Shown piece by piece: positions 10,831 through 23,677 of a stretch of DNA of 64,000 nt; the stretch's first letter is position 1; each line of letters begins with the position of its first letter. The DNA is taken from positions 32,001 through 96,000 of the forward strand of contig JAEOTR010000016.1 of the NCBI GenBank assembly GCA_016839705.1, given 5' to 3'. The DNA is from Promethearchaeota archaeon (lineage in GTDB: Archaea; Asgardarchaeota; Lokiarchaeia; Sigyniarchaeales; SOKP01). The position numbers and the translations under genes were made by a program. The notes beneath the pieces are model-generated. The model ran no database searches, was not told where the DNA came from, and saw only the letters and a program-made list of their open reading frames with translations.

Positions 10831-11976
10831 TTAAAATCCAAACATGTTAATTGGTGAGGATCCATTACCTGAGTCTACCGCAGCTTGTACATATGGAGAT
10901 ACGGGTCCATTTGCTAAAACCATAATTTTTACCTTGGAACCCATATCTGGTTTATTTTGAACACCAAATTTTAACTGAGCGCTCTCAGGAATTCCATTTG
11001 TAATAGTAGAGATAACACTATCAACTTTAGATAAAGTTAATGTATGATCACCTGTAACAGATACTATACATCTCTCAACTTTACTAGTATCTGGTTCGAG
11101 TAATGGATTATTTAATGCTAATTTTGCTTTCTCTATTAAATCTGATTCATTTCCCACTGATTCTGCGATGCCAACCAACCCAGAAGGATAATTATCTTTT
11201 TTAACAAAGATTCTTTTCACATCCGCAAAATCTATATTAACCAAACCGCAATTGTTAATTAAGTTAACAACTTCTCCAATATTTCGGATTAAGACTTCGT
11301 CCATAATTTTAAAGCCAGTTATCATGGGAATTTTTCCAACTATGCTCAAAAGATTGTCATTTGGAACGGTTATTAGAAAGTCAGAATATTCTGCTAGATT
11401 TTTAAGACCCTGAGTTGCTTTAACTGCTCTTTGAGCTCCTTCTGATTTAAAGGGAAGTGAACAAAAAGTAACGACTATAGCCTTATTCTTCTTCGCTTCT
11501 TCTGCAATAATTGGTGCTGCACCAGTCCCCGTTCCTCCACCTAGTCCGCAGGTTAAAAAAATAATATCCCCATTAAGAAGTTTACTTAATCTGTCGCGAT
11601 CTTCTTCAGCTGCTTCACCTCCTACTGAAGGATCATTACCCGATCCCATGCCTTGACAACGATCTTTACCGATTAAGACTTTATGTTTTGCATTTGAATA
11701 ATACAAATCGTGAGCATCAGTATTAATATTAACGGTCTCAGCATTACTTATGCCTAATTCCTCCAATCGTGAGACCGTATTATTTCCTGCACCCCCAACT
11801 CCAACTACCAATGATTTAATCTTCAAAACTTTCAGTAAATCTGCTAAATAGCTATCATCATCACAATTTGGATTTGTATTAGGATTTTGGTTCTGGTGAG
11901 CTATTTCATTAAACCTTTCTCTTATAGATGATCGGGATTTTGCTAGTTCGGCTAAATCAAAAATATCATCGCTCAT
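10831..11976 (-). CDS. ftsZ: Cell division GTPase FtsZ
   Basis: GVGGAGNN, NTD, GGGTGTG, PF..EG, NDNL, T7 loop NIDFADV. Confidence 0.95.
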   Translation of the reverse strand: MSDDIFDLAELAKSRSSIRERFNEIAHQNQNPNTNPNCDDDSYLADLLKVLKIKSLVVGVGGAGNNTVSRLEELGISNAETVNINTDAHDLYYSNAKHKVLIGKDRCQGMGSGNDPSVGGEAAEEDRDRLSKLLNGDIIFLTCGLGGGTGTGAAPIIAEEAKKNKAIVVTFCSLPFKSEGAQRAVKATQGLKNLAEYSDFLITVPNDNLLSIVGKIPMITGFKIMDEVLIRNIGEVVNLINNCGLVNIDFADVKRIFVKKDNYPSGLVGIAESVGNESDLIEKAKLALNNPLLEPDTSKVERCIVSVTGDHTLTLSKVDSVISTITNGIPESAQLKFGVQNKPDMGSKVKIMVLANGPVSPYVQAAVDSGNGSSPINMFGF

Positions 11977-15029: not shown

Positions 15030-16166
15030 TTAATATTTTGAAGGAGTTTTAGATTTTATTTTTTGTTTTGGGATGCCCTTTAACTTTCTTAACTCTTTTT
15101 CAAAATTTCTTTTTTCATTAAGAAATCTCTGTTTGTCTTTCTCTAATTTTTCCCTTTCCCGTTTTATTGTACTTTTATCGTTAGATAAGTCTAATTTCTC
15201 TCTTTCTAAACGTCTGAGGTCAATATTTAACCTTTTGAATTTTTCTTCTAATGGGGGTATTTTTTCAGATATGGAGTAGAATTTATTTTCAGATTTAGGA
15301 ATCTTACTTTCTAATTCTTTCATTCTTACCTCTTGTTGTCTTTTTCTGCTTTCAAGACTTTTTACATCATTTTCCACTTTATTCCTATATTTTCTTAGAT
15401 CTTCCTTTTTCTTATCAATCTCTCGGCCTTTCAGGTTTAGTTCATCTTTTTGATAACGTAATTTCTCTCGATTTTCTTTTAGCTTACTTTTTTCATCAGA
15501 AATCCTGTTTTTTTCATCAACTAACTCCCTCTTTAAGTTATTCACTTCTCGATTGAGGGTATCTCTTTCTTTAGTTAAATATTTAATTTCATTTCTTAAA
15601 TCTTCTAATTTATGCTCTAGATCTTCGTTAGTCTTCTCAAGCGCACTCTTTCTTCTTTCCATCCCAGGTATCTTCGTTTTTATATCCTTAAATTGGTTTT
15701 CAATCCTCTGTTTTTCTTGGTCTATTGAATCTTTTTCATTTCCTAACTCATCTCTAAGCTTATCTAACCTTTTCTGAAATCCCTCTAATTGAGCTTTCCT
15801 TTGATTTAATCTATCGTTTTCTTCTCTTTTTTTATCTTTAAATTGTTGTTCTCTTGCATCTAACTCAATTTTTTGTTTTTCTAAGTCATTTTTTGTTTTT
15901 TTAAGACTGTTCTGAATGATATCCCTTTTTTCACGAAGATTTTTTAGTTCAATTTCTTCCGTTTTCCGCTTTTTTTCAAGATCTTCTATATTTTCTCTGT
16001 AATTCTCAATTTGGGTAATGAAATTTTCCCATTCACCCTTTTCTTTATTAAGTTTTATTCTTTCCTTCTTAATCTTTTTTAACAAATTTTTATCAGCAAT
16101 CATGTCACCCTCGTCGTCGGGAGTTTTTTCTCGAATTTGATGTTTGGGAATAGGTTTATCATTCAT
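15030..16166 (-). CDS. Long K/E-rich coiled-coil protein
   Basis: About 330 aa of heptad-like K/E/R/L composition with no globular domain. Confidence 0.8.
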   Translation of the reverse strand: MNDKPIPKHQIREKTPDDEGDMIADKNLLKKIKKERIKLNKEKGEWENFITQIENYRENIEDLEKKRKTEEIELKNLREKRDIIQNSLKKTKNDLEKQKIELDAREQQFKDKKREENDRLNQRKAQLEGFQKRLDKLRDELGNEKDSIDQEKQRIENQFKDIKTKIPGMERRKSALEKTNEDLEHKLEDLRNEIKYLTKERDTLNREVNNLKRELVDEKNRISDEKSKLKENREKLRYQKDELNLKGREIDKKKEDLRKYRNKVENDVKSLESRKRQQEVRMKELESKIPKSENKFYSISEKIPPLEEKFKRLNIDLRRLEREKLDLSNDKSTIKREREKLEKDKQRFLNEKRNFEKELRKLKGIPKQKIKSKTPSKY

Positions 16167-16376: not shown

Positions 16377-16769
16377 ATGGGATTTGACAATGAATATGAG
16401 GAGGGTTTAGAATTTGATGAAGATTTGGAAGAAGATTTAGATGATAAGTTGGATGAAATCCCCTCAGAAATTCCTAGCAAAGATATTAATTCTAAAACCC
16501 CCATCCCAAGGGCTACTTCTGAAGGAAAAAAAATTTCTGTTTACTTTATTTCAACCATCGGACCCGAGAAAAAGCAAAAATTGCTTATTAATAGTGGAAA
16601 TCTTGTTGGAGATATTAAGCAGACAGTAGCAAACTTATTCGCTTTAGATCCAGCTGACTTCTATTTGTCAGCACTAGGGATCACCATGGATGAACAAAAT
16701 CCTTTGAAAGAATATGAAGTAGATGATGGAGACGACATACTTTTAATCCCGGCTAGTATTGCAGGATAA
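16377..16769 (+). CDS. Ubiquitin-like modifier paralogue A (acidic N-tail, ends ...IPASIAG)
   Basis: Beta-grasp pattern (VGDIKQTV...LSALGITM...LKEYEVDDGDDILLIP), close paralogue of 19347..19688, terminal Gly. Confidence 0.85.
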   Translation: MGFDNEYEEGLEFDEDLEEDLDDKLDEIPSEIPSKDINSKTPIPRATSEGKKISVYFISTIGPEKKQKLLINSGNLVGDIKQTVANLFALDPADFYLSALGITMDEQNPLKEYEVDDGDDILLIPASIAG

Positions 16770-16787: not shown

Positions 16788-17582
16788 TTAATTATTCCTT
16801 TTTCTCGATGGAATCAGAGCAATTTCATCATCATCATCAATATCATAGTTTTGGATTTGCTTATCTTCAGATAGTAAAATTCCCCCTGAAGATAGAAGAA
16901 ATCCCTCCAATTCATAATTAAATAGTACTCCCACTCTTTTTTTAACTGTACTAATTAATTCAGTTGTATCAACAATGATCAACTTAGTAATCTCGCCTGG
17001 TTCAACTAGGGATCTAATGTACACACGGATCTGATCCTTGAGATTAATTTTATTTTTAGGTGGTATATAAAATATTTCCTCATCAGTTTGATCTCGATTC
17101 TTAAGCATATTATCGATTAATGCTTTTCGTTCATCCACATCAAAATAGAGCATTTCTCTAATAAAAAGGATTTTGTCAAGCTTTGATAATCCAAGGTTGT
17201 TTATTTTTCCTAATTCTTCCTTACTAAAAACTGAAAAAATATATTTGCTGATTATTGGAGAATCCTCATAAGATTCATTTGAATCAAGATATTCTTCAAT
17301 TGAAGGCAAAACCTCAAGATATTCATCGATAACATTCTCATCTATCCTATTGAAAGACTTAGTTTTCGGTGAAATTTTCTTATCTCTTATTTTATCATGT
17401 TGATGACCTGTCGATTGGATAACGGTATAGATTGTGCTAGTAGAGAGAACTGCAACACTCCCAATTGTTAGAATAAGAAATAATGGGGTGTTGTTTACCC
17501 CAAACAGGAAATAACTTACGTAAATCAACACAAAAATAGTATAAAGGGTTATAACGCTTAATGTTCTATATTTTTTCTTCAT
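16788..17582 (-). CDS. Membrane protein (2 N-terminal TM) with C-terminal ubiquitin-like domain
   Basis: Two hydrophobic segments, then a C-terminal domain that aligns with both Ubl paralogues (PGE, LSSGG, YDIDDDDEIALIP) but ends SRKRNN with no Gly. Confidence 0.8.
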   Translation of the reverse strand: MKKKYRTLSVITLYTIFVLIYVSYFLFGVNNTPLFLILTIGSVAVLSTSTIYTVIQSTGHQHDKIRDKKISPKTKSFNRIDENVIDEYLEVLPSIEEYLDSNESYEDSPIISKYIFSVFSKEELGKINNLGLSKLDKILFIREMLYFDVDERKALIDNMLKNRDQTDEEIFYIPPKNKINLKDQIRVYIRSLVEPGEITKLIIVDTTELISTVKKRVGVLFNYELEGFLLSSGGILLSEDKQIQNYDIDDDDEIALIPSRKRNN

Positions 17583-17667: not shown

Positions 17668-18339
17668 TCAATCACCTTGAATTAACTTCCTAACCTTATT
17701 ATACTTCTTAATATCTAATTTGAATAATATTCGATTTTTATCTTTCTCAGTTTCTAATAATTTTAGATTTTCTAGAATATTGACATATTTTTTTATAGTG
17801 TTGTGATTTTTTTTCATACCATTTGCTATTTCAGTGATTTTAAATGGCTTATCTTCATTGGTTAGGAATTCTATTAATTTTAGAACAATATCTTTATTCA
17901 AATAATAATAAAACTTATCCAACTTTGGATTTGAATCATATTCAAAGAAAATCCGATGGTTATTGAGTTTTTCTGACCTGACAAATTTAAATTTTTCTAG
18001 ACAAGAAAGGTGCCATAGTGCTTGATTACTTCCGATCTTAAGAGTTTTCATTATTTCATTAATATTAGACGGATTTTTTTTTATGTAATTATAAATCTCA
18101 TTCCTTTTTGGATGTTCAATGATATTATTCTTCATTAACCGAGTTCCAGGGATGATTATTTTCTTTTTTATCAATGATTTTATTATTAACTCAATTTTAT
18201 TTCGGTTTAAATTAGGATTTAACCTTACCCTGTTACTTATAAATTCTATTATATCAGTGATCGAAAAGAATGTTTTTTTTGTTAGATATTCTTTTACTAA
18301 GCCAAGAACAATAGATTCTAAATTATCCAAGGAACTCAT
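17668..18339 (-). CDS. Multi winged-helix (ArsR-like) DNA-binding protein
   Basis: RNEIYNYIKKNP..INEI...WHLSCLEK and ITEIA....HNTIKKYVNILEN wHTH repeats. Confidence 0.8.
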   Translation of the reverse strand: MSSLDNLESIVLGLVKEYLTKKTFFSITDIIEFISNRVRLNPNLNRNKIELIIKSLIKKKIIIPGTRLMKNNIIEHPKRNEIYNYIKKNPSNINEIMKTLKIGSNQALWHLSCLEKFKFVRSEKLNNHRIFFEYDSNPKLDKFYYYLNKDIVLKLIEFLTNEDKPFKITEIANGMKKNHNTIKKYVNILENLKLLETEKDKNRILFKLDIKKYNKVRKLIQGD

Positions 18340-18602: not shown

Positions 18603-19120
18603 ATGGCGAATGGGAAAGGTTTAACCTATTTAGGATTGATTTTAAGATTAATCGGTGCGGGTTTGGGCGGATATGTATTTTTTGATTATATTTAGCTCCA
18701 CTATTAGGATTTGGAGACCCTCCTGCAGAAGGTTCTGAAATAAATTCATACTACGTAGAAACCTACCAAGCAACCCTCACCCTACCTGATACATATGAAT
18801 CCCTTGATGGAATGATAATTTCATTTAATACAACCAAAACAGTTAACTTACACGTATTATATACTGGTTATGTAAGGATTATGACAACCCTTGGATTATA
18901 TGCTCAAATAAAAATCCTTCTTAATAGTACCATATTAACAACTAATCAATATTATGTAGAGGAGATTGGTTTTGTCGTTCAAGAACGATTTGCTGTTAAC
19001 ATGTAAAATTATATCTCTGCGCTACCTCCAGGAAATTATAATGTAACAGTATTAGGGATGTCCGATGATACTTCAACAAGTTTTTTTCAGAACTCACTCT
19101 ATATACAAATTCATACTTAA
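18603..19120 (+). pseudogene. Pseudogene of a signal-anchored beta-rich protein
   Basis: ATG 18603 MANGKGLTYLGLILRLIGAGLGGYVFFDYI, then a -1 frameshift near 18692. Continues LAPLLGFGDP... through the track ORF 18812..19006, past an internal TAA (19004), to ...NSLYIQIHT* at 19120. Confidence 0.75.
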
Positions 19121-19346
19121 ATAATTAATTAATTCAAATTCCTCATTTTTTTTACCTCTATTAATAGTTCTTTATACTTTCCTGAAGATTTATTATCTTC
19201 TTTCTCATATGGGATCATGATACTTTTTTTTTAAATGAAAGAAAAACTACAATTTTATGCCAATTGATTTTATAATACCATTTTAACTCAATTTTATTAG
19301 GTTTTTAATAAAAAAATAAAAAAATAAAAAATTGGAAGTGATGTGT

Positions 19347-19688
19347 ATGAGTTTTGAAGATGAGTTTGATGAGGATTTAGGTGGGGAGAGACCTGTAAAT
19401 TCTAAGACCCCTTCATCTAAAACCCCTTCAGCAGGAAGAAAATTGACATTGTATTTTATGTCAACCATAGGCCCTGGCGAGAAGAAAGAAAAATTAACAG
19501 TGAATGACGGAAATTGCGTTGAGGATATAAAGCAGACATTAGGAAATTTATATGGACTTGATCCTAATGATTTTCATTTATCTTCTGGCGGAGTTACGAT
19601 GGATGAAAATAGCTCATTAAAGGATTACCATGTGAGCGATGGAGACGACATTCTTATGATTCCCGCGAGCACTGCCGGGAAAGCTTAA
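19347..19688 (+). CDS. Ubiquitin-like modifier paralogue B, precursor form (...IPASTAG-KA)
   Basis: Beta-grasp pattern; first gene of the Ubl-E1-E2-JAMM-RING run; ATG 19347 (or 19341) preferred over TTG 19332. Confidence 0.88.
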   Translation: MSFEDEFDEDLGGERPVNSKTPSSKTPSAGRKLTLYFMSTIGPGEKKEKLTVNDGNCVEDIKQTLGNLYGLDPNDFHLSSGGVTMDENSSLKDYHVSDGDDILMIPASTAGKA

Positions 19689-19761: not shown

Positions 19762-20997
19762 ATGGTAATACTTATGGATAAGAATTCAGAATTTTTCGGA
19801 AAAGAGTTATCAGTGGAAGAGAGAAGTTTGTATGACCGTCAATTTCGTCTCGAGGGATGGTCTCAGAAATTGGTAAAAAATTCGAGGATATTAATTGCAG
19901 GCGTCGGTGGTTTAGGGTGTGAAATTGCTAAAAATCTATCGATGCTTGGTATCGGTCACTTAGATCTCGTTGATTTGGATATTATTGAACATTCTAATTT
20001 AAACCGTCAAATTCTTTTTGCGGGGGCAAAGATCGGAGAACCTAAAGCGGTTGTTGCAGCAAGAAAACTTAAGGACATTAATCCTAATATAGCAGTTAAA
20101 GGTTATCACACCTCTTTAGAGCGATTAAATCCCGCAATCTATCAAGCCGCTGATGTAATAATTGGAGGTCTTGATTCGATGAATACCCGTCTAAACTTGA
20201 ATGCTCAATGTATTAGGTTTAAAATCCCTCTTGTCGATGGAGGTGTATCTGGATATCACGGTCATGTATACACAATCTTTCCTTATCAAAATGCCTGTTA
20301 TGAGTGCAATCCCTTACCCGTCGTAGAGGGTGATGACATGGCGGCTTGTACAGTAGTAGGAATTCCTCGAAAAAGAATCCATTGTGTCTTTAAAGGAGAC
20401 ATGGCATTTAAAGAAAAACTTGATAGAGGTCCCAATCCTAAAAATGTAAATGATATCAAATTCATTCAAAAGGTTGCAAATGAATTAGTAAATAAACATA
20501 ATTTCTTACCTGAATATACGGTAGATGATATTGTAAGAATAATTGATAGACATGATCCGGGAATAATTACGATTAATGCGGTTATTTCCGCCTTACAATC
20601 CCATGAAGCCGTGAAAATTCTCCATTGGAAAAAGGGTCATAAAGGGCTTGGAGAACCAATTCAAAATTATGTGGTCTATAATGGAATAACTATGAAATTT
20701 TATCATATTGAAAAAAAAAGAAATCCAGAATGTTCTCAGTGTGGAAAGCACGTTAGAAGAGTATCAATAAAATTGAACCCTCATTCACCATGCGAGAACA
20801 TAATCAAAATATTAACTAAAAATGGGTTTAAACCTGATCCAGATTCAGAACCAATTCTTACTTTACAAGATTTTAATGATATTAAGATGGTTGATTTAGA
20901 ACAGAATCCAATTGAAAATGGTTTAAGAAATTATGAATTTATAACCGCAGCAGGCTTCAAAGATGGGGAAATTTTTGTAACCTTAAAATTGAAATAA
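19762..20997 (+). CDS. Ubiquitin-activating enzyme E1 (ThiF adenylation domain with catalytic-Cys insert, UBA2/UBA3-like)
   Basis: YDRQFRL, GVGGLG, DLDIIEHSNLNRQ, Zn pairs CYEC/CSQC, catalytic-type ACTVVGIPRKRIHC. Confidence 0.93.
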   Translation: MVILMDKNSEFFGKELSVEERSLYDRQFRLEGWSQKLVKNSRILIAGVGGLGCEIAKNLSMLGIGHLDLVDLDIIEHSNLNRQILFAGAKIGEPKAVVAARKLKDINPNIAVKGYHTSLERLNPAIYQAADVIIGGLDSMNTRLNLNAQCIRFKIPLVDGGVSGYHGHVYTIFPYQNACYECNPLPVVEGDDMAACTVVGIPRKRIHCVFKGDMAFKEKLDRGPNPKNVNDIKFIQKVANELVNKHNFLPEYTVDDIVRIIDRHDPGIITINAVISALQSHEAVKILHWKKGHKGLGEPIQNYVVYNGITMKFYHIEKKRNPECSQCGKHVRRVSIKLNPHSPCENIIKILTKNGFKPDPDSEPILTLQDFNDIKMVDLEQNPIENGLRNYEFITAAGFKDGEIFVTLKLK

Positions 20998-21078: not shown

Positions 21079-21606
21079 ATGAGTATAAGAAGTAGTCGTA
21101 TTTCCCAAGATTTTGCAGGATTAAAAAAACTGTTAAAGACGGGTACTATAATTCAATTAAAACCATTTAATCCTAAAAAGAAGAGTATAGATCATTTAGC
21201 TATAACTATTAAAGGGCCAAAAGGCACTGTATATGCGGGAGGTGTGTTTAAATTAGAAATGAAATTCCCTTCCCAGTATCCTAGCCAACCCCCTTTCGTT
21301 AGAATGCATACTCCAATTTGGCATCCAAATTTTTGGCCAAAACCGACTGAATATAAGGGACAAAGAAATATATGTCTAGCTTTGGTAGATCCCTCTTTGG
21401 CGGGTAAAAAGGGTGGATGGAGTCCATCAAAAACAGCAGTGACAATTGTTCAAGCAATAATTGCAATGCTAAACACCCGTGGTAAATTTGTTAACCCAAC
21501 TGATGTTTTTAATAAAAAGGCAGCAATTGAAATGATGAAAAATCCTAAATTTTTCGAGAAAAAGGTTAAAAACTTAGTTAAAAAATATGCAAATACGAAA
21601 TGGTGA
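21079..21606 (+). CDS. Ubiquitin-conjugating enzyme E2 (UBC fold)
   Basis: GPKGTVYAGGVF, FPSQYPSQPP, WHPN, catalytic ICL, WSPS. Confidence 0.95.
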   Translation: MSIRSSRISQDFAGLKKLLKTGTIIQLKPFNPKKKSIDHLAITIKGPKGTVYAGGVFKLEMKFPSQYPSQPPFVRMHTPIWHPNFWPKPTEYKGQRNICLALVDPSLAGKKGGWSPSKTAVTIVQAIIAMLNTRGKFVNPTDVFNKKAAIEMMKNPKFFEKKVKNLVKKYANTKW

Positions 21607-22442
21607 TTTCGCTAATGGAAGAAAAAGAATCAGCTAACAGTTCAATTAAAGACGTAATAAAGCAGAAAATAAAAGAAAAAATAAAAAAGGAATTATTAGA
21701 TGAAATACGTGAAGAGCTTCAATTAGAAGAAGAAGAATTAACTGAAGAAATTATTTCAATGCTTACACAAAGAGTTTCTAACGGTCTAAATATAAAACAT
21801 TCGAAGGCGCCCATCGTTAATATTTTAGAAAAAAAAGTCATAGAACCTCAATTAGAGCAAGAAGCCCAAAAGGAAACCTACATTACAATAAAGGCAACTC
21901 TTAAAATAGCAAGTCACGCTATAAAATATGCTAATCCTAATATACCTAAATCAAACTGGATTGAAGTTATAGGTATTCTCGCTGGAAAAATAGATAAAAA
22001 GACTGGTTTACTAATAATTGAAGATGCATATCCTGTTGGACATGGCAATGCAATCCATGCAAAAATGGATGATAAGAGAAATCGTAGAACGGGTTTTATA
22101 AAAGCTTTTGAAATAATCAAGAAAAATAAATTAGATATTTGTGGGTGGTATCATTCTCATCCTTGCTATGGATGTTTTATGTCACCCGAAGATTTTGATA
22201 CTCAAGCGAGATATCAGAAATTATGGGATAAAGCCGTTGCACTTGTTATCGATCCGTGCCTTATTGATGGAACTTCAACAGGTTTTGAGATTTATCAGGC
22301 AGATTTGAAATCAAAAACTTTCTATCCTCTATTATATGGAATTAAAGGATCGTTAGATATCCGTATGCTACCCGACATTTTAGAATTTATGAATCCAATT
22401 ATTCAAGGGAAAGCGGCTTATTTAGAATATGATAAAGATTAA
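21600..22442 (+). CDS. JAMM/MPN+ isopeptidase (Rpn11/CSN5-like) with N-terminal charged helical extension
   Basis: EVIGILAG...GWYHSHPCYGCFMSPEDFDTQ...ALVIDP; overlaps the E2 stop. Confidence 0.93.
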   Translation: MVISLMEEKESANSSIKDVIKQKIKEKIKKELLDEIREELQLEEEELTEEIISMLTQRVSNGLNIKHSKAPIVNILEKKVIEPQLEQEAQKETYITIKATLKIASHAIKYANPNIPKSNWIEVIGILAGKIDKKTGLLIIEDAYPVGHGNAIHAKMDDKRNRRTGFIKAFEIIKKNKLDICGWYHSHPCYGCFMSPEDFDTQARYQKLWDKAVALVIDPCLIDGTSTGFEIYQADLKSKTFYPLLYGIKGSLDIRMLPDILEFMNPIIQGKAAYLEYDKD

Positions 22443-22471: not shown

Positions 22472-23677
22472 GTGGCTAAAACTAAGGTAATAATTTTACT
22501 GCTGATTGCATTTGCAATTATCGGCATAATACACGGTGCCATTCTAAATTCAGTTAATGTATTTGTAAGTTGGTTTTTAATAGGGATATGGTTAGTATTT
22601 ACATTTAAAGTTATAAAGAATATAAAGCAACATCGTGAATATCGTAGTCCACACAATACAGCATTTTTTACTATTGGTCCTGTTTTGATTGGAATTTTTT
22701 ATTCAATTTGGGGAAATTTTACAGGATTATTAGGAGAAAATCTCTTAATAAGCACAGATTTATATTTAAGTTGGTGGAGTATACTATTTGGGTTTCCATA
22801 TGTGTTTTATAGTTCAATCTCATTATACCGTTGTTTTAAAAAATACCGAGTAATTTATTTTGGGACAAAATCTGTAAATGCCCGTAAATTTGGCTATTTA
22901 TTAGGCATATCGGTTATATTTTTCATATCTATCTATTGGATTAGTTTCTATTCATTGATCGATTTTTATGAATCTCTTATAATACCACTTCATTTTTTAC
23001 TAGATCTTAATCTTCTAATACTGCTTGTGAGCACTATTCTAATAATAATTATTGCAGGATTATTTGGGTCACAGACTCAATTACCCCAATTAACAAGAGA
23101 TTATATAGCACAGCGTAGGAATAGATTAAACCAACTAACATCACCTAGAAGAAATAGTACACCTAATAGATATAGGGAAAGTGTTCGCAATACCACAAGG
23201 TCAAATCCAACACCTTCAGCTAGCACGGTAACCCGTACATCAAGATCAGTGAACCATTCATCCCGATCTACACCAACCGCACGAAGACGTTCTACAACTA
23301 CAAGAACTAAAACAAGTTCTCGAACTGTGAGTAGAGGGCCAACAGGGACACAGGTAAGAAAGAAACAGAGTACTAAAAAAATAACTAACTTTAATATATA
23401 TAAACCTAAAGCCGCGCGTTTATCATCTGAGGACTTTAAGTGTATTTTTTGCTTTAAATTACCAAAAATTCCTGAGGATAACGGTAGAGGTATAATTTTA
23501 TGTCCAAATTGTAGATACCCTGCTCATGCAGATGAATTTAAGGATTGGTTACAAAGTTCCAACCTCTGTTCTCGATGCAGTGCTCCTATTCCTACAACCT
23601 ATAAGAGAAATCCAAGAATAATACCGATTAAAACTTATTTAGTAATTGTAAAACATTTTATTGGCAATAAGAGATAA
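22472..23677 (+). CDS. Multi-pass membrane protein with C-terminal variant RING finger (putative E3 ligase)
   Basis: About 6 TM segments, an S/T/R-rich linker, then C-x2-C-x16-C-x2-C-x4-H-x2-E-x3-W-x6-C-x2-C. Confidence 0.8.
   Translation: MAKTKVIILLLIAFAIIGIIHGAILNSVNVFVSWFLIGIWLVFTFKVIKNIKQHREYRSPHNTAFFTIGPVLIGIFYSIWGNFTGLLGENLLISTDLYLSWWSILFGFPYVFYSSISLYRCFKKYRVIYFGTKSVNARKFGYLLGISVIFFISIYWISFYSLIDFYESLIIPLHFLLDLNLLILLVSTILIIIIAGLFGSQTQLPQLTRDYIAQRRNRLNQLTSPRRNSTPNRYRESVRNTTRSNPTPSASTVTRTSRSVNHSSRSTPTARRRSTTTRTKTSSRTVSRGPTGTQVRKKQSTKKITNFNIYKPKAARLSSEDFKCIFCFKLPKIPEDNGRGIILCPNCRYPAHADEFKDWLQSSNLCSRCSAPIPTTYKRNPRIIPIKTYLVIVKHFIGNKR

Follow-up and report, generated by a model that had tools for sequence, protein, structure and literature searches.

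Ubiquitin-fold paralogues ending in Ala-Gly in an Asgard archaeal protein-tagging cluster, with residues beyond the glycine that look like stop-codon drift

The window analyzed here is a 64,000-nucleotide stretch of a Promethearchaeota (Lokiarchaeia) genome (GCA_016839705.1, contig JAEOTR010000016.1, positions 32,001 to 96,000). It carries a cluster of a type already known from Caldiarchaeum and from Asgard archaea, in which the Ala-Gly end of the encoded tags is a departure from the Gly-Gly rule. The genes lie in the following order:

15030..16166, minus strand: coiled-coil protein, 378 aa, in divergent orientation to A, Lys-Thr-Pro (KTP) near both ends (residues 14 and 373)
16377..16769, plus strand: Ubl-A (A), 130 aa
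Within A, about residues 1-50: acidic/disordered N-arm with one KTP motif
Within A, residues 51-130: ubiquitin-fold domain with Ala-Gly-stop at its end
16788..17582, minus strand: membrane-anchored Ubl paralogue, 264 aa, converges on A
17668..18339, minus strand: winged-helix protein, 223 aa, divergent from B, kept in the cluster
19347..19688, plus strand: Ubl-B (B), 113 aa, counted from the ATG that matches its orthologues
19762..20997, plus strand: E1, 411 aa, GxGxxG and two CxxC pairs
21079..21606, plus strand: E2, 175 aa, HPN motif and downstream Cys
21600..22442, plus strand: JAMM/Rpn11-like metalloprotease, 280 aa, intact HxH-x7-S-x2-D motif
22472..23677, plus strand: multi-pass membrane protein with a C-terminal Cys-rich RING-like domain, candidate E3

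The E1, E2 and Rpn11-like JAMM linked to A and B have intact catalytic motifs. The nearest solved relatives of the E1 are UBA3 and then UBA2 (E = 3e-37 for UBA3 versus 2e-14 for UBA5), and its catalytic Cys196 aligns with that of UBA3. The E2 is nearest to ordinary HPN-type E2s, and the best PDB match of the JAMM protein is Caldiarchaeum Rpn11 (CsRpn11, E = 7e-15). The RING-like domain gave a weak Pfam match only (zf-RING_16, E = 0.12), as did a distant orthologue (zf-RING_2). The membrane-anchored paralogue has a hydrophobic N-terminus and a C-terminal Ubl domain 36% identical to A; it ends in basic residues without a Gly and therefore cannot be activated. The coiled-coil protein is a candidate substrate or scaffold. 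A promoter scan with a bacterial consensus returned chance-level counts (19 versus 22.5). About 3 kb from the cluster lies an FtsZ/tubulin-family ORF with a GGGTGTG motif (window 10831-11976, minus strand).

A closes with GCA GGA TAA, so that it stops exactly at the Gly, as a sequence-only reading of this DNA had stated. Contigs from three sequencing runs of a single study, one of them possibly the source sample, showed no difference at this stop. The same reading had taken A for a close paralogue of B, and BLASTP agrees (52% identity over 121 columns against the frame 19332-19688, E = 6e-44), with the quoted motifs present in both. In this alignment the last Gly of A pairs with the Gly of B that precedes Lys-Ala.

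Residues 49-130 of A were modeled as a ubiquitin-type beta-grasp domain (pLDDT 90.5). Its best Foldseek match is the Caldiarchaeum ubiquitin (CsUb, TM 0.85), followed by ISG15, Hub1, ubiquitin, SUMO and NEDD8, and matches in the ESM Atlas were ubiquitin-like or unnamed clusters only, at 0.88-0.91. Superposition with VIA-align on ISG15 and ubiquitin gave Z values of 13-14.6 with an rmsd of 1.3-2.6 Å over 72-79 residues (Z 14.6, rmsd 1.7 Å and 78 aligned residues for ISG15). The ubiquitin Pfam model matches at the A/B locus. The SUMO-like model PF11976 scored 15.7 bits with B, under its cut-off of 23.8, and did not match A; there was no NCBIfam model and no ThiS/MoaD family match for either protein. 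In the profile alignment, to which CsUb aligned to its end, position 75 corresponds to ubiquitin Leu69 and hence position 82 to Gly76, which places Gly130 of A on Gly76 and Ala129 on Gly75. We conclude that A is a real ubiquitin-fold paralogue in an Asgard protein-tagging cluster.

Homologues of A carry the label Promethearchaeota as well as other Asgard names. All 120 homologous proteins keep the Ala-Gly, and 92 of them stop right there; every locus of the family that was read likewise has Ala-Gly in place of Gly-Gly. The Ala-Gly is unchanged also in Helarchaeal and Hodarchaeal members sited before E1-E2-JAMM. Invariant and aligned with ubiquitin Gly76, this Gly is likely the reactive end of the A/B family. 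This agrees with the earlier suggestion that A marks the Gly as the processing site in B.

The order of the cluster is retained in most of about 30 same-genus loci that were read. Other families have a single Ubl between the coiled-coil gene and the E1, and in Helarchaeal, Hodarchaeal and two further loci one or two family members stand immediately 5' of E1-E2-JAMM. By profile search, the family is present in 78 of 201 sampled genomes of the phylum, including Hodarchaeales. Further tandem duplications of the tag before the E1 were seen in one Hodarchaeal and two other loci (L157, L158, L162), and an extra B copy in a same-genus locus (L041); the tails of these copies vary (none, LL, S, K, VG, ARSF, YLV). 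In three genomes of the genus (L045, L048, L060) the cluster is broken up, with an E1 fragment after B or with A apart from B and the E1.

In other genomes, a domain of the A/B type, often with its Ala-Gly intact, caps the C-terminus of larger proteins (P0128, P0133, P0152, P0192, P0121; L040:1332-2156, L066:9691-11448). Among them are a HerA-like ATPase, a CDC48_N-vWA protein, a zinc-finger-like protein and a three-domain tandem. Such proteins could be large modifiers that attach themselves.

A and B are, to judge from their comparison across loci, old and distinct paralogues. Their domains are on average 83% identical among A copies, 88% among B copies and 72% from A to B, and about a dozen diagnostic columns separate them. 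Ahead of Ala-Gly stands an invariable Thr in B; in A the position is filled by Ile, Thr or Val. In a quick tree of 81 columns, B and a third copy form one clade (support 99). A retains the ancestral gene position and is closer than B to the single copies of other families (68% versus 63%). The arms of A are longer (median 52 versus 29 residues) and more acidic; both arms are acidic and rich in Pro, Ser and Lys, disorder being judged from this composition. Lys-Thr-Pro occurs in 47 of 49 A arms and in all 51 B arms, and 43 of 46 coiled-coil orthologues carry it close to the C-terminus, against a background of 0.17 per 1000 residues in the ORFs of the genome. Its presence at the coiled-coil N-terminus (46/46) is partly circular given how the orthologues were picked.

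The third free copy lies elsewhere in the genome (contig C43:25283-25519, locus L074). It ends at the Gly, is 82% identical to B and measures 78 aa, without the acidic N-arm that its orthologues (110 aa) possess, and it may be decaying. In one other genome, B and its unlinked third copy (L035, L100) are grouped by the tree with weak support, a hint of possible gene conversion between the copies.

Gly-Gly tags also exist in this genome. On contig C30 (35030-37303) a JAMM gene, an E1 and a probable E2 converge on a Ubl ending in Gly-Gly-Leu, contig C13 (41591-41845) has a lone Gly-Gly Ubl, and contig C53 (21913-29618) carries an E1 and E2 with no Ubl adjoining. The position of ubiquitin Arg72 is Arg or Lys in these Gly-Gly Ubls and Ala in A and B.

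We modeled the A domain together with ATP and a dimer of the E1. The complex scored 0.66, the best control 0.00; 58 of 80 solved complexes attain the mark applied to such models, as do 2 of 110 mismatched pairs. Runs agreed in at least 87% of contacts, the partner pLDDT was at least 84, and the terminal Gly was placed in the adenylation pocket against the GxGxxG loop. Since a Ubl and an E1 are a textbook pair, the model shows likeness to solved complexes, not binding. The modeled E1-contact residues are identical between A and B at 19 of 24 positions, as compared with 34 of 58 elsewhere, which is as expected for paralogues with a common E1 and different partners. Tyr170 of the E1 is invariant and occupies the site at which UBA3 has its Arg selectivity gate; opposite it, A and B have an Ala, as does NEDD8. 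This Tyr is not one of the model's confident contacts, and more distant tags carry other residues facing that gate.

The Ala-Gly proteins might alternatively not be attached to substrates at all but be non-covalent adaptors resembling Hub1, or ligands of the E1, with the E1 and E2 serving a Gly-Gly Ubl encoded elsewhere. The missing di-Gly, the appearance of Hub1 among the fold and profile matches, the Gly-Gly Ubls on C13 and C30 and a clearly non-conjugatable paralogue inside the cluster would all fit such a role. However, the Gly has been held invariant and in register in the free tags and was lost in the membrane paralogue, a tag gene lies directly 5' of the E1 in Loki-, Hel- and Hodarchaeal loci, and the Gly-Gly Ubl on C30 adjoins E1, E2-like and JAMM genes of its own. 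UFM1 and ATG8 are modifiers with a single Gly. We therefore regard a non-covalent role as unlikely and favor conjugation through the terminal Ala-Gly.

In the window, B differs from A in its shorter arm with two KTP motifs and in its C-terminus, Ala-Gly-Lys-Ala; the ORF finder places its start at TTG 19332. The Lys-Ala tail goes back to a TAA>AAA change at 19680-19682, the closest relative reading GGG TAA ACT TAA where B of the window reads GGG AAA GCT TAA. B lies in a clade (SH-aLRT 94; quick search, 81 columns) whose other eight members end at the Gly. With this nesting and the stop codon of the relative, the tail is best read as a derived and private change. It was matched without difference only by a contig of the possible source run (Logan). 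The tail is thus not the artefact of one assembler, but the exact match comes from no independent sample; an assembly error was considered as its origin and is unsupported, the Logan contig having identical letters.

An inserted, broken gene (18603-19121, plus strand) separates the winged-helix gene from B. Its N-terminus is hydrophobic, its frame shifts near 18690, and a stop codon follows at 19004-19006. Its letters are identical in contigs of two runs, and a search of the genome and of related loci yielded no second copy.

The tail could be mildly harmful and inactivate B, the JAMM protease leaving it in place, so that A is the sole active tag. Decay of this kind might be read into the broken gene upstream of B, the shortened third copy and slightly more private changes close to the end of B. 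Yet B retains an intact domain with about 85% identity to its orthologues, and tails occur also on single-copy genes of other families. In two loci both copies are tailed, which would leave these loci with no active tag unless trimming occurs. We consider an inactive B very unlikely.

The sequence-only reading had gone further and proposed that A is constitutively protease-independent and B JAMM-gated, giving two evolved inputs to one E1/E2. This holds for the sequences of the window taken alone, in which, judging from Caldiarchaeum, B would have to be trimmed before it can be activated. Among 52 paired loci, both copies end at the Gly in 38, B alone is tailed in seven including the window, A alone in five, and both in two. 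Comparing loci with a tail on B alone and on A alone gives an exact McNemar P of 0.77 (kin are not independent). Neither terminus shows a pattern of mature A and tailed B when followed across orthologues: 47 of 58 in-family B orthologues end at the Gly and 11 have tails, as do 7 of 60 A orthologues and 1 of 26 third copies. Another contig of this very genome holds a B-type copy that stops at the Gly, though shortened at its N-terminus, and B of the window is itself nested among Gly-ending relatives. A two-input design would require conserved ends, and since the ends are not conserved this reading fails; as a conserved design it is largely refuted, and we hold it to be highly improbable as an account of the locus.

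What the tails look like instead is stop-codon drift, putatively tolerated through trimming by the Rpn11-like JAMM. The 28 tailed homologues (of 120) carry 16 different tail strings with no sequence common to them, and the tails Arg-Leu-Ile and Lys-Leu-Ile arose by loss of one base within the stretch that gave B of the window its tail. In other families, seven of the eight single-copy genes beside the E1 have a one-residue tail, which means that the tag, if used, has to be processed after Ala-Gly there. In Caldiarchaeum, Rpn11 both trims the ubiquitin precursor and removes conjugates, and the uncleaved precursor is not activated (PMC5654768, PMC6043591). Given this behavior of an archaeal precursor (PMC5654768), constitutive trimming after Ala-Gly is the simplest reading, and under such trimming the stop codon would drift in either paralogue. 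That most copies stop exactly at the Gly points to tails being weakly selected against and not entirely neutral.

An Asgard precursor of UFM1, marked by one terminal Gly behind an Ile-Pro motif, is a reading to which the single Gly and the UFM1 homologues reported from nine Asgard clades (PMC12962969) might point; it can be practically dismissed on account of the UBA3-like E1 and the HPN motif of the E2. A search for UFM1 itself with PF03671 gave no match at the locus up to E = 10, where the ubiquitin model does match. UFM1 was likewise absent from the best 50 rows of three fold searches, which were filled by ubiquitin-type domains, an absence that alone is not excluding.

We propose that A, by its position, represents the ancestral copy in an Asgard family of modifiers with a ubiquitin fold and Ala-Gly as the reactive end. 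An early duplication in this Loki family would have placed A next to the coiled-coil gene and B next to the E1; the third copy would derive from B. Both A and B would normally be encoded ending at the Gly, the two-residue tail of the window's B being a chance state of this genome. For activation, trimming and substrates we infer the course from Caldiarchaeum: the UBA3-like E1 would adenylate the terminal Gly and form a thioester, the tag would be handed to the E2, and the membrane RING-like protein may direct it to lysines of membrane-associated substrates. The JAMM protein would strip tags and trim residues beyond Ala-Gly. The distinction between A and B would then reside in the N-arm and surface residues and not in processing. 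We assign this explanation as a whole, with Ala-Gly modifiers, an E1-E2-RING cascade, constitutive JAMM trimming and drifting stops, a probability of roughly 0.75.

A tentative extension, which we think possible but would not bet on, is a separate Asgard pathway of Ala-Gly conjugation apart from the Gly-Gly ubiquitins, with A and B specialized via their arms and the Lys of KTP as acceptor for arm chains and for tagging of the coiled-coil protein at the membrane. If true, this would be a SUMO-like consensus-site system with paralogue specialization, archaeal in origin.

The claim of a processing switch should accordingly be dropped as an accident of one genome. Tails past the putative reactive Gly appear to drift freely, and a single genome gives no basis for reading regulation into them. 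The remaining value of the locus lies in a widespread Asgard tag family off the Gly-Gly rule that has retained diverged paralogues, with a short lysine motif common to the tags and a neighboring protein. It is a small, fully encoded system for asking how an E1 and a JAMM protease accept Ala-Gly. The family is found in Hodarchaeales, close relatives of eukaryotes, and bears on whether the diversification of ubiquitin-like tags predates eukaryotes. Our literature search yielded no paper on tags ending in Ala-Gly; it covered few subscription papers, and "undescribed" is accordingly provisional.

A discrete ubiquitylation gene region in Lokiarchaeota has been described by Hatano et al. 2022 (PMC9192718). 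The E2 of Lokiarchaeum GC14_75 in their source data is, judged by eye, almost like the E2 of the window, whereas the Loki ubiquitin they tested, Lokiarch_37670, belongs to another family with Gly-Gly plus a tail; we found no mention of glycine termini or paralogues in their text (PMC9192718). A motif search, a weak test in a genome 93% complete, did not find a ubiquitin of the Lokiarch_37670 type here.

The SAMP/MoaD/Urm1 proteins differ from A and B, which have no Gly-Gly, no ThiS match and an E2 in their cluster. UFM1 and ATG8 share with A and B one terminal Gly after a non-Gly residue; however, there is no sequence match to UFM1, and the E1 and E2 are not of the UBA5/UFC1 or ATG7 types. The likeness to NEDD8/UBA3 consists in the E1, with its invariant Tyr170 in place of the Arg gate of UBA3, and in an Ala of A at the position of NEDD8 Ala72. 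An APPBP1 partner and a cullin context are lacking here, and distant family members have other residues at this site.

The SUMO analogy drawn in the sequence-only reading holds for several diverged tags with disordered N-arms on a common E1/E2, to which lysine motifs in the arms can be added. It does not hold for processing. SUMOs end in Gly-Gly, and each of them is synthesized as a precursor that cysteine proteases cleave, whereas A and B end in Ala-Gly and match the SUMO-like Pfam model below cut-off or not at all.

The closest characterized parallel is the operon of Caldiarchaeum subterraneum, which encodes the same gene set of ubiquitin, E1, E2, small RING and Rpn11 (PMC5654768, PMC6043591). 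Its JAMM protein removes a precursor tail, and CsUb and CsRpn11 are the top matches of A and of the JAMM protein. That characterized archaeal system uses Gly-Gly, with one tag made as a 9-residue precursor, unlike the two to three free and usually tailless Ala-Gly paralogues described here. Its RING protein is small and soluble; here a membrane RING-like protein is found, together with acidic N-arms and a membrane-anchored dead copy that Caldiarchaeum does not have.
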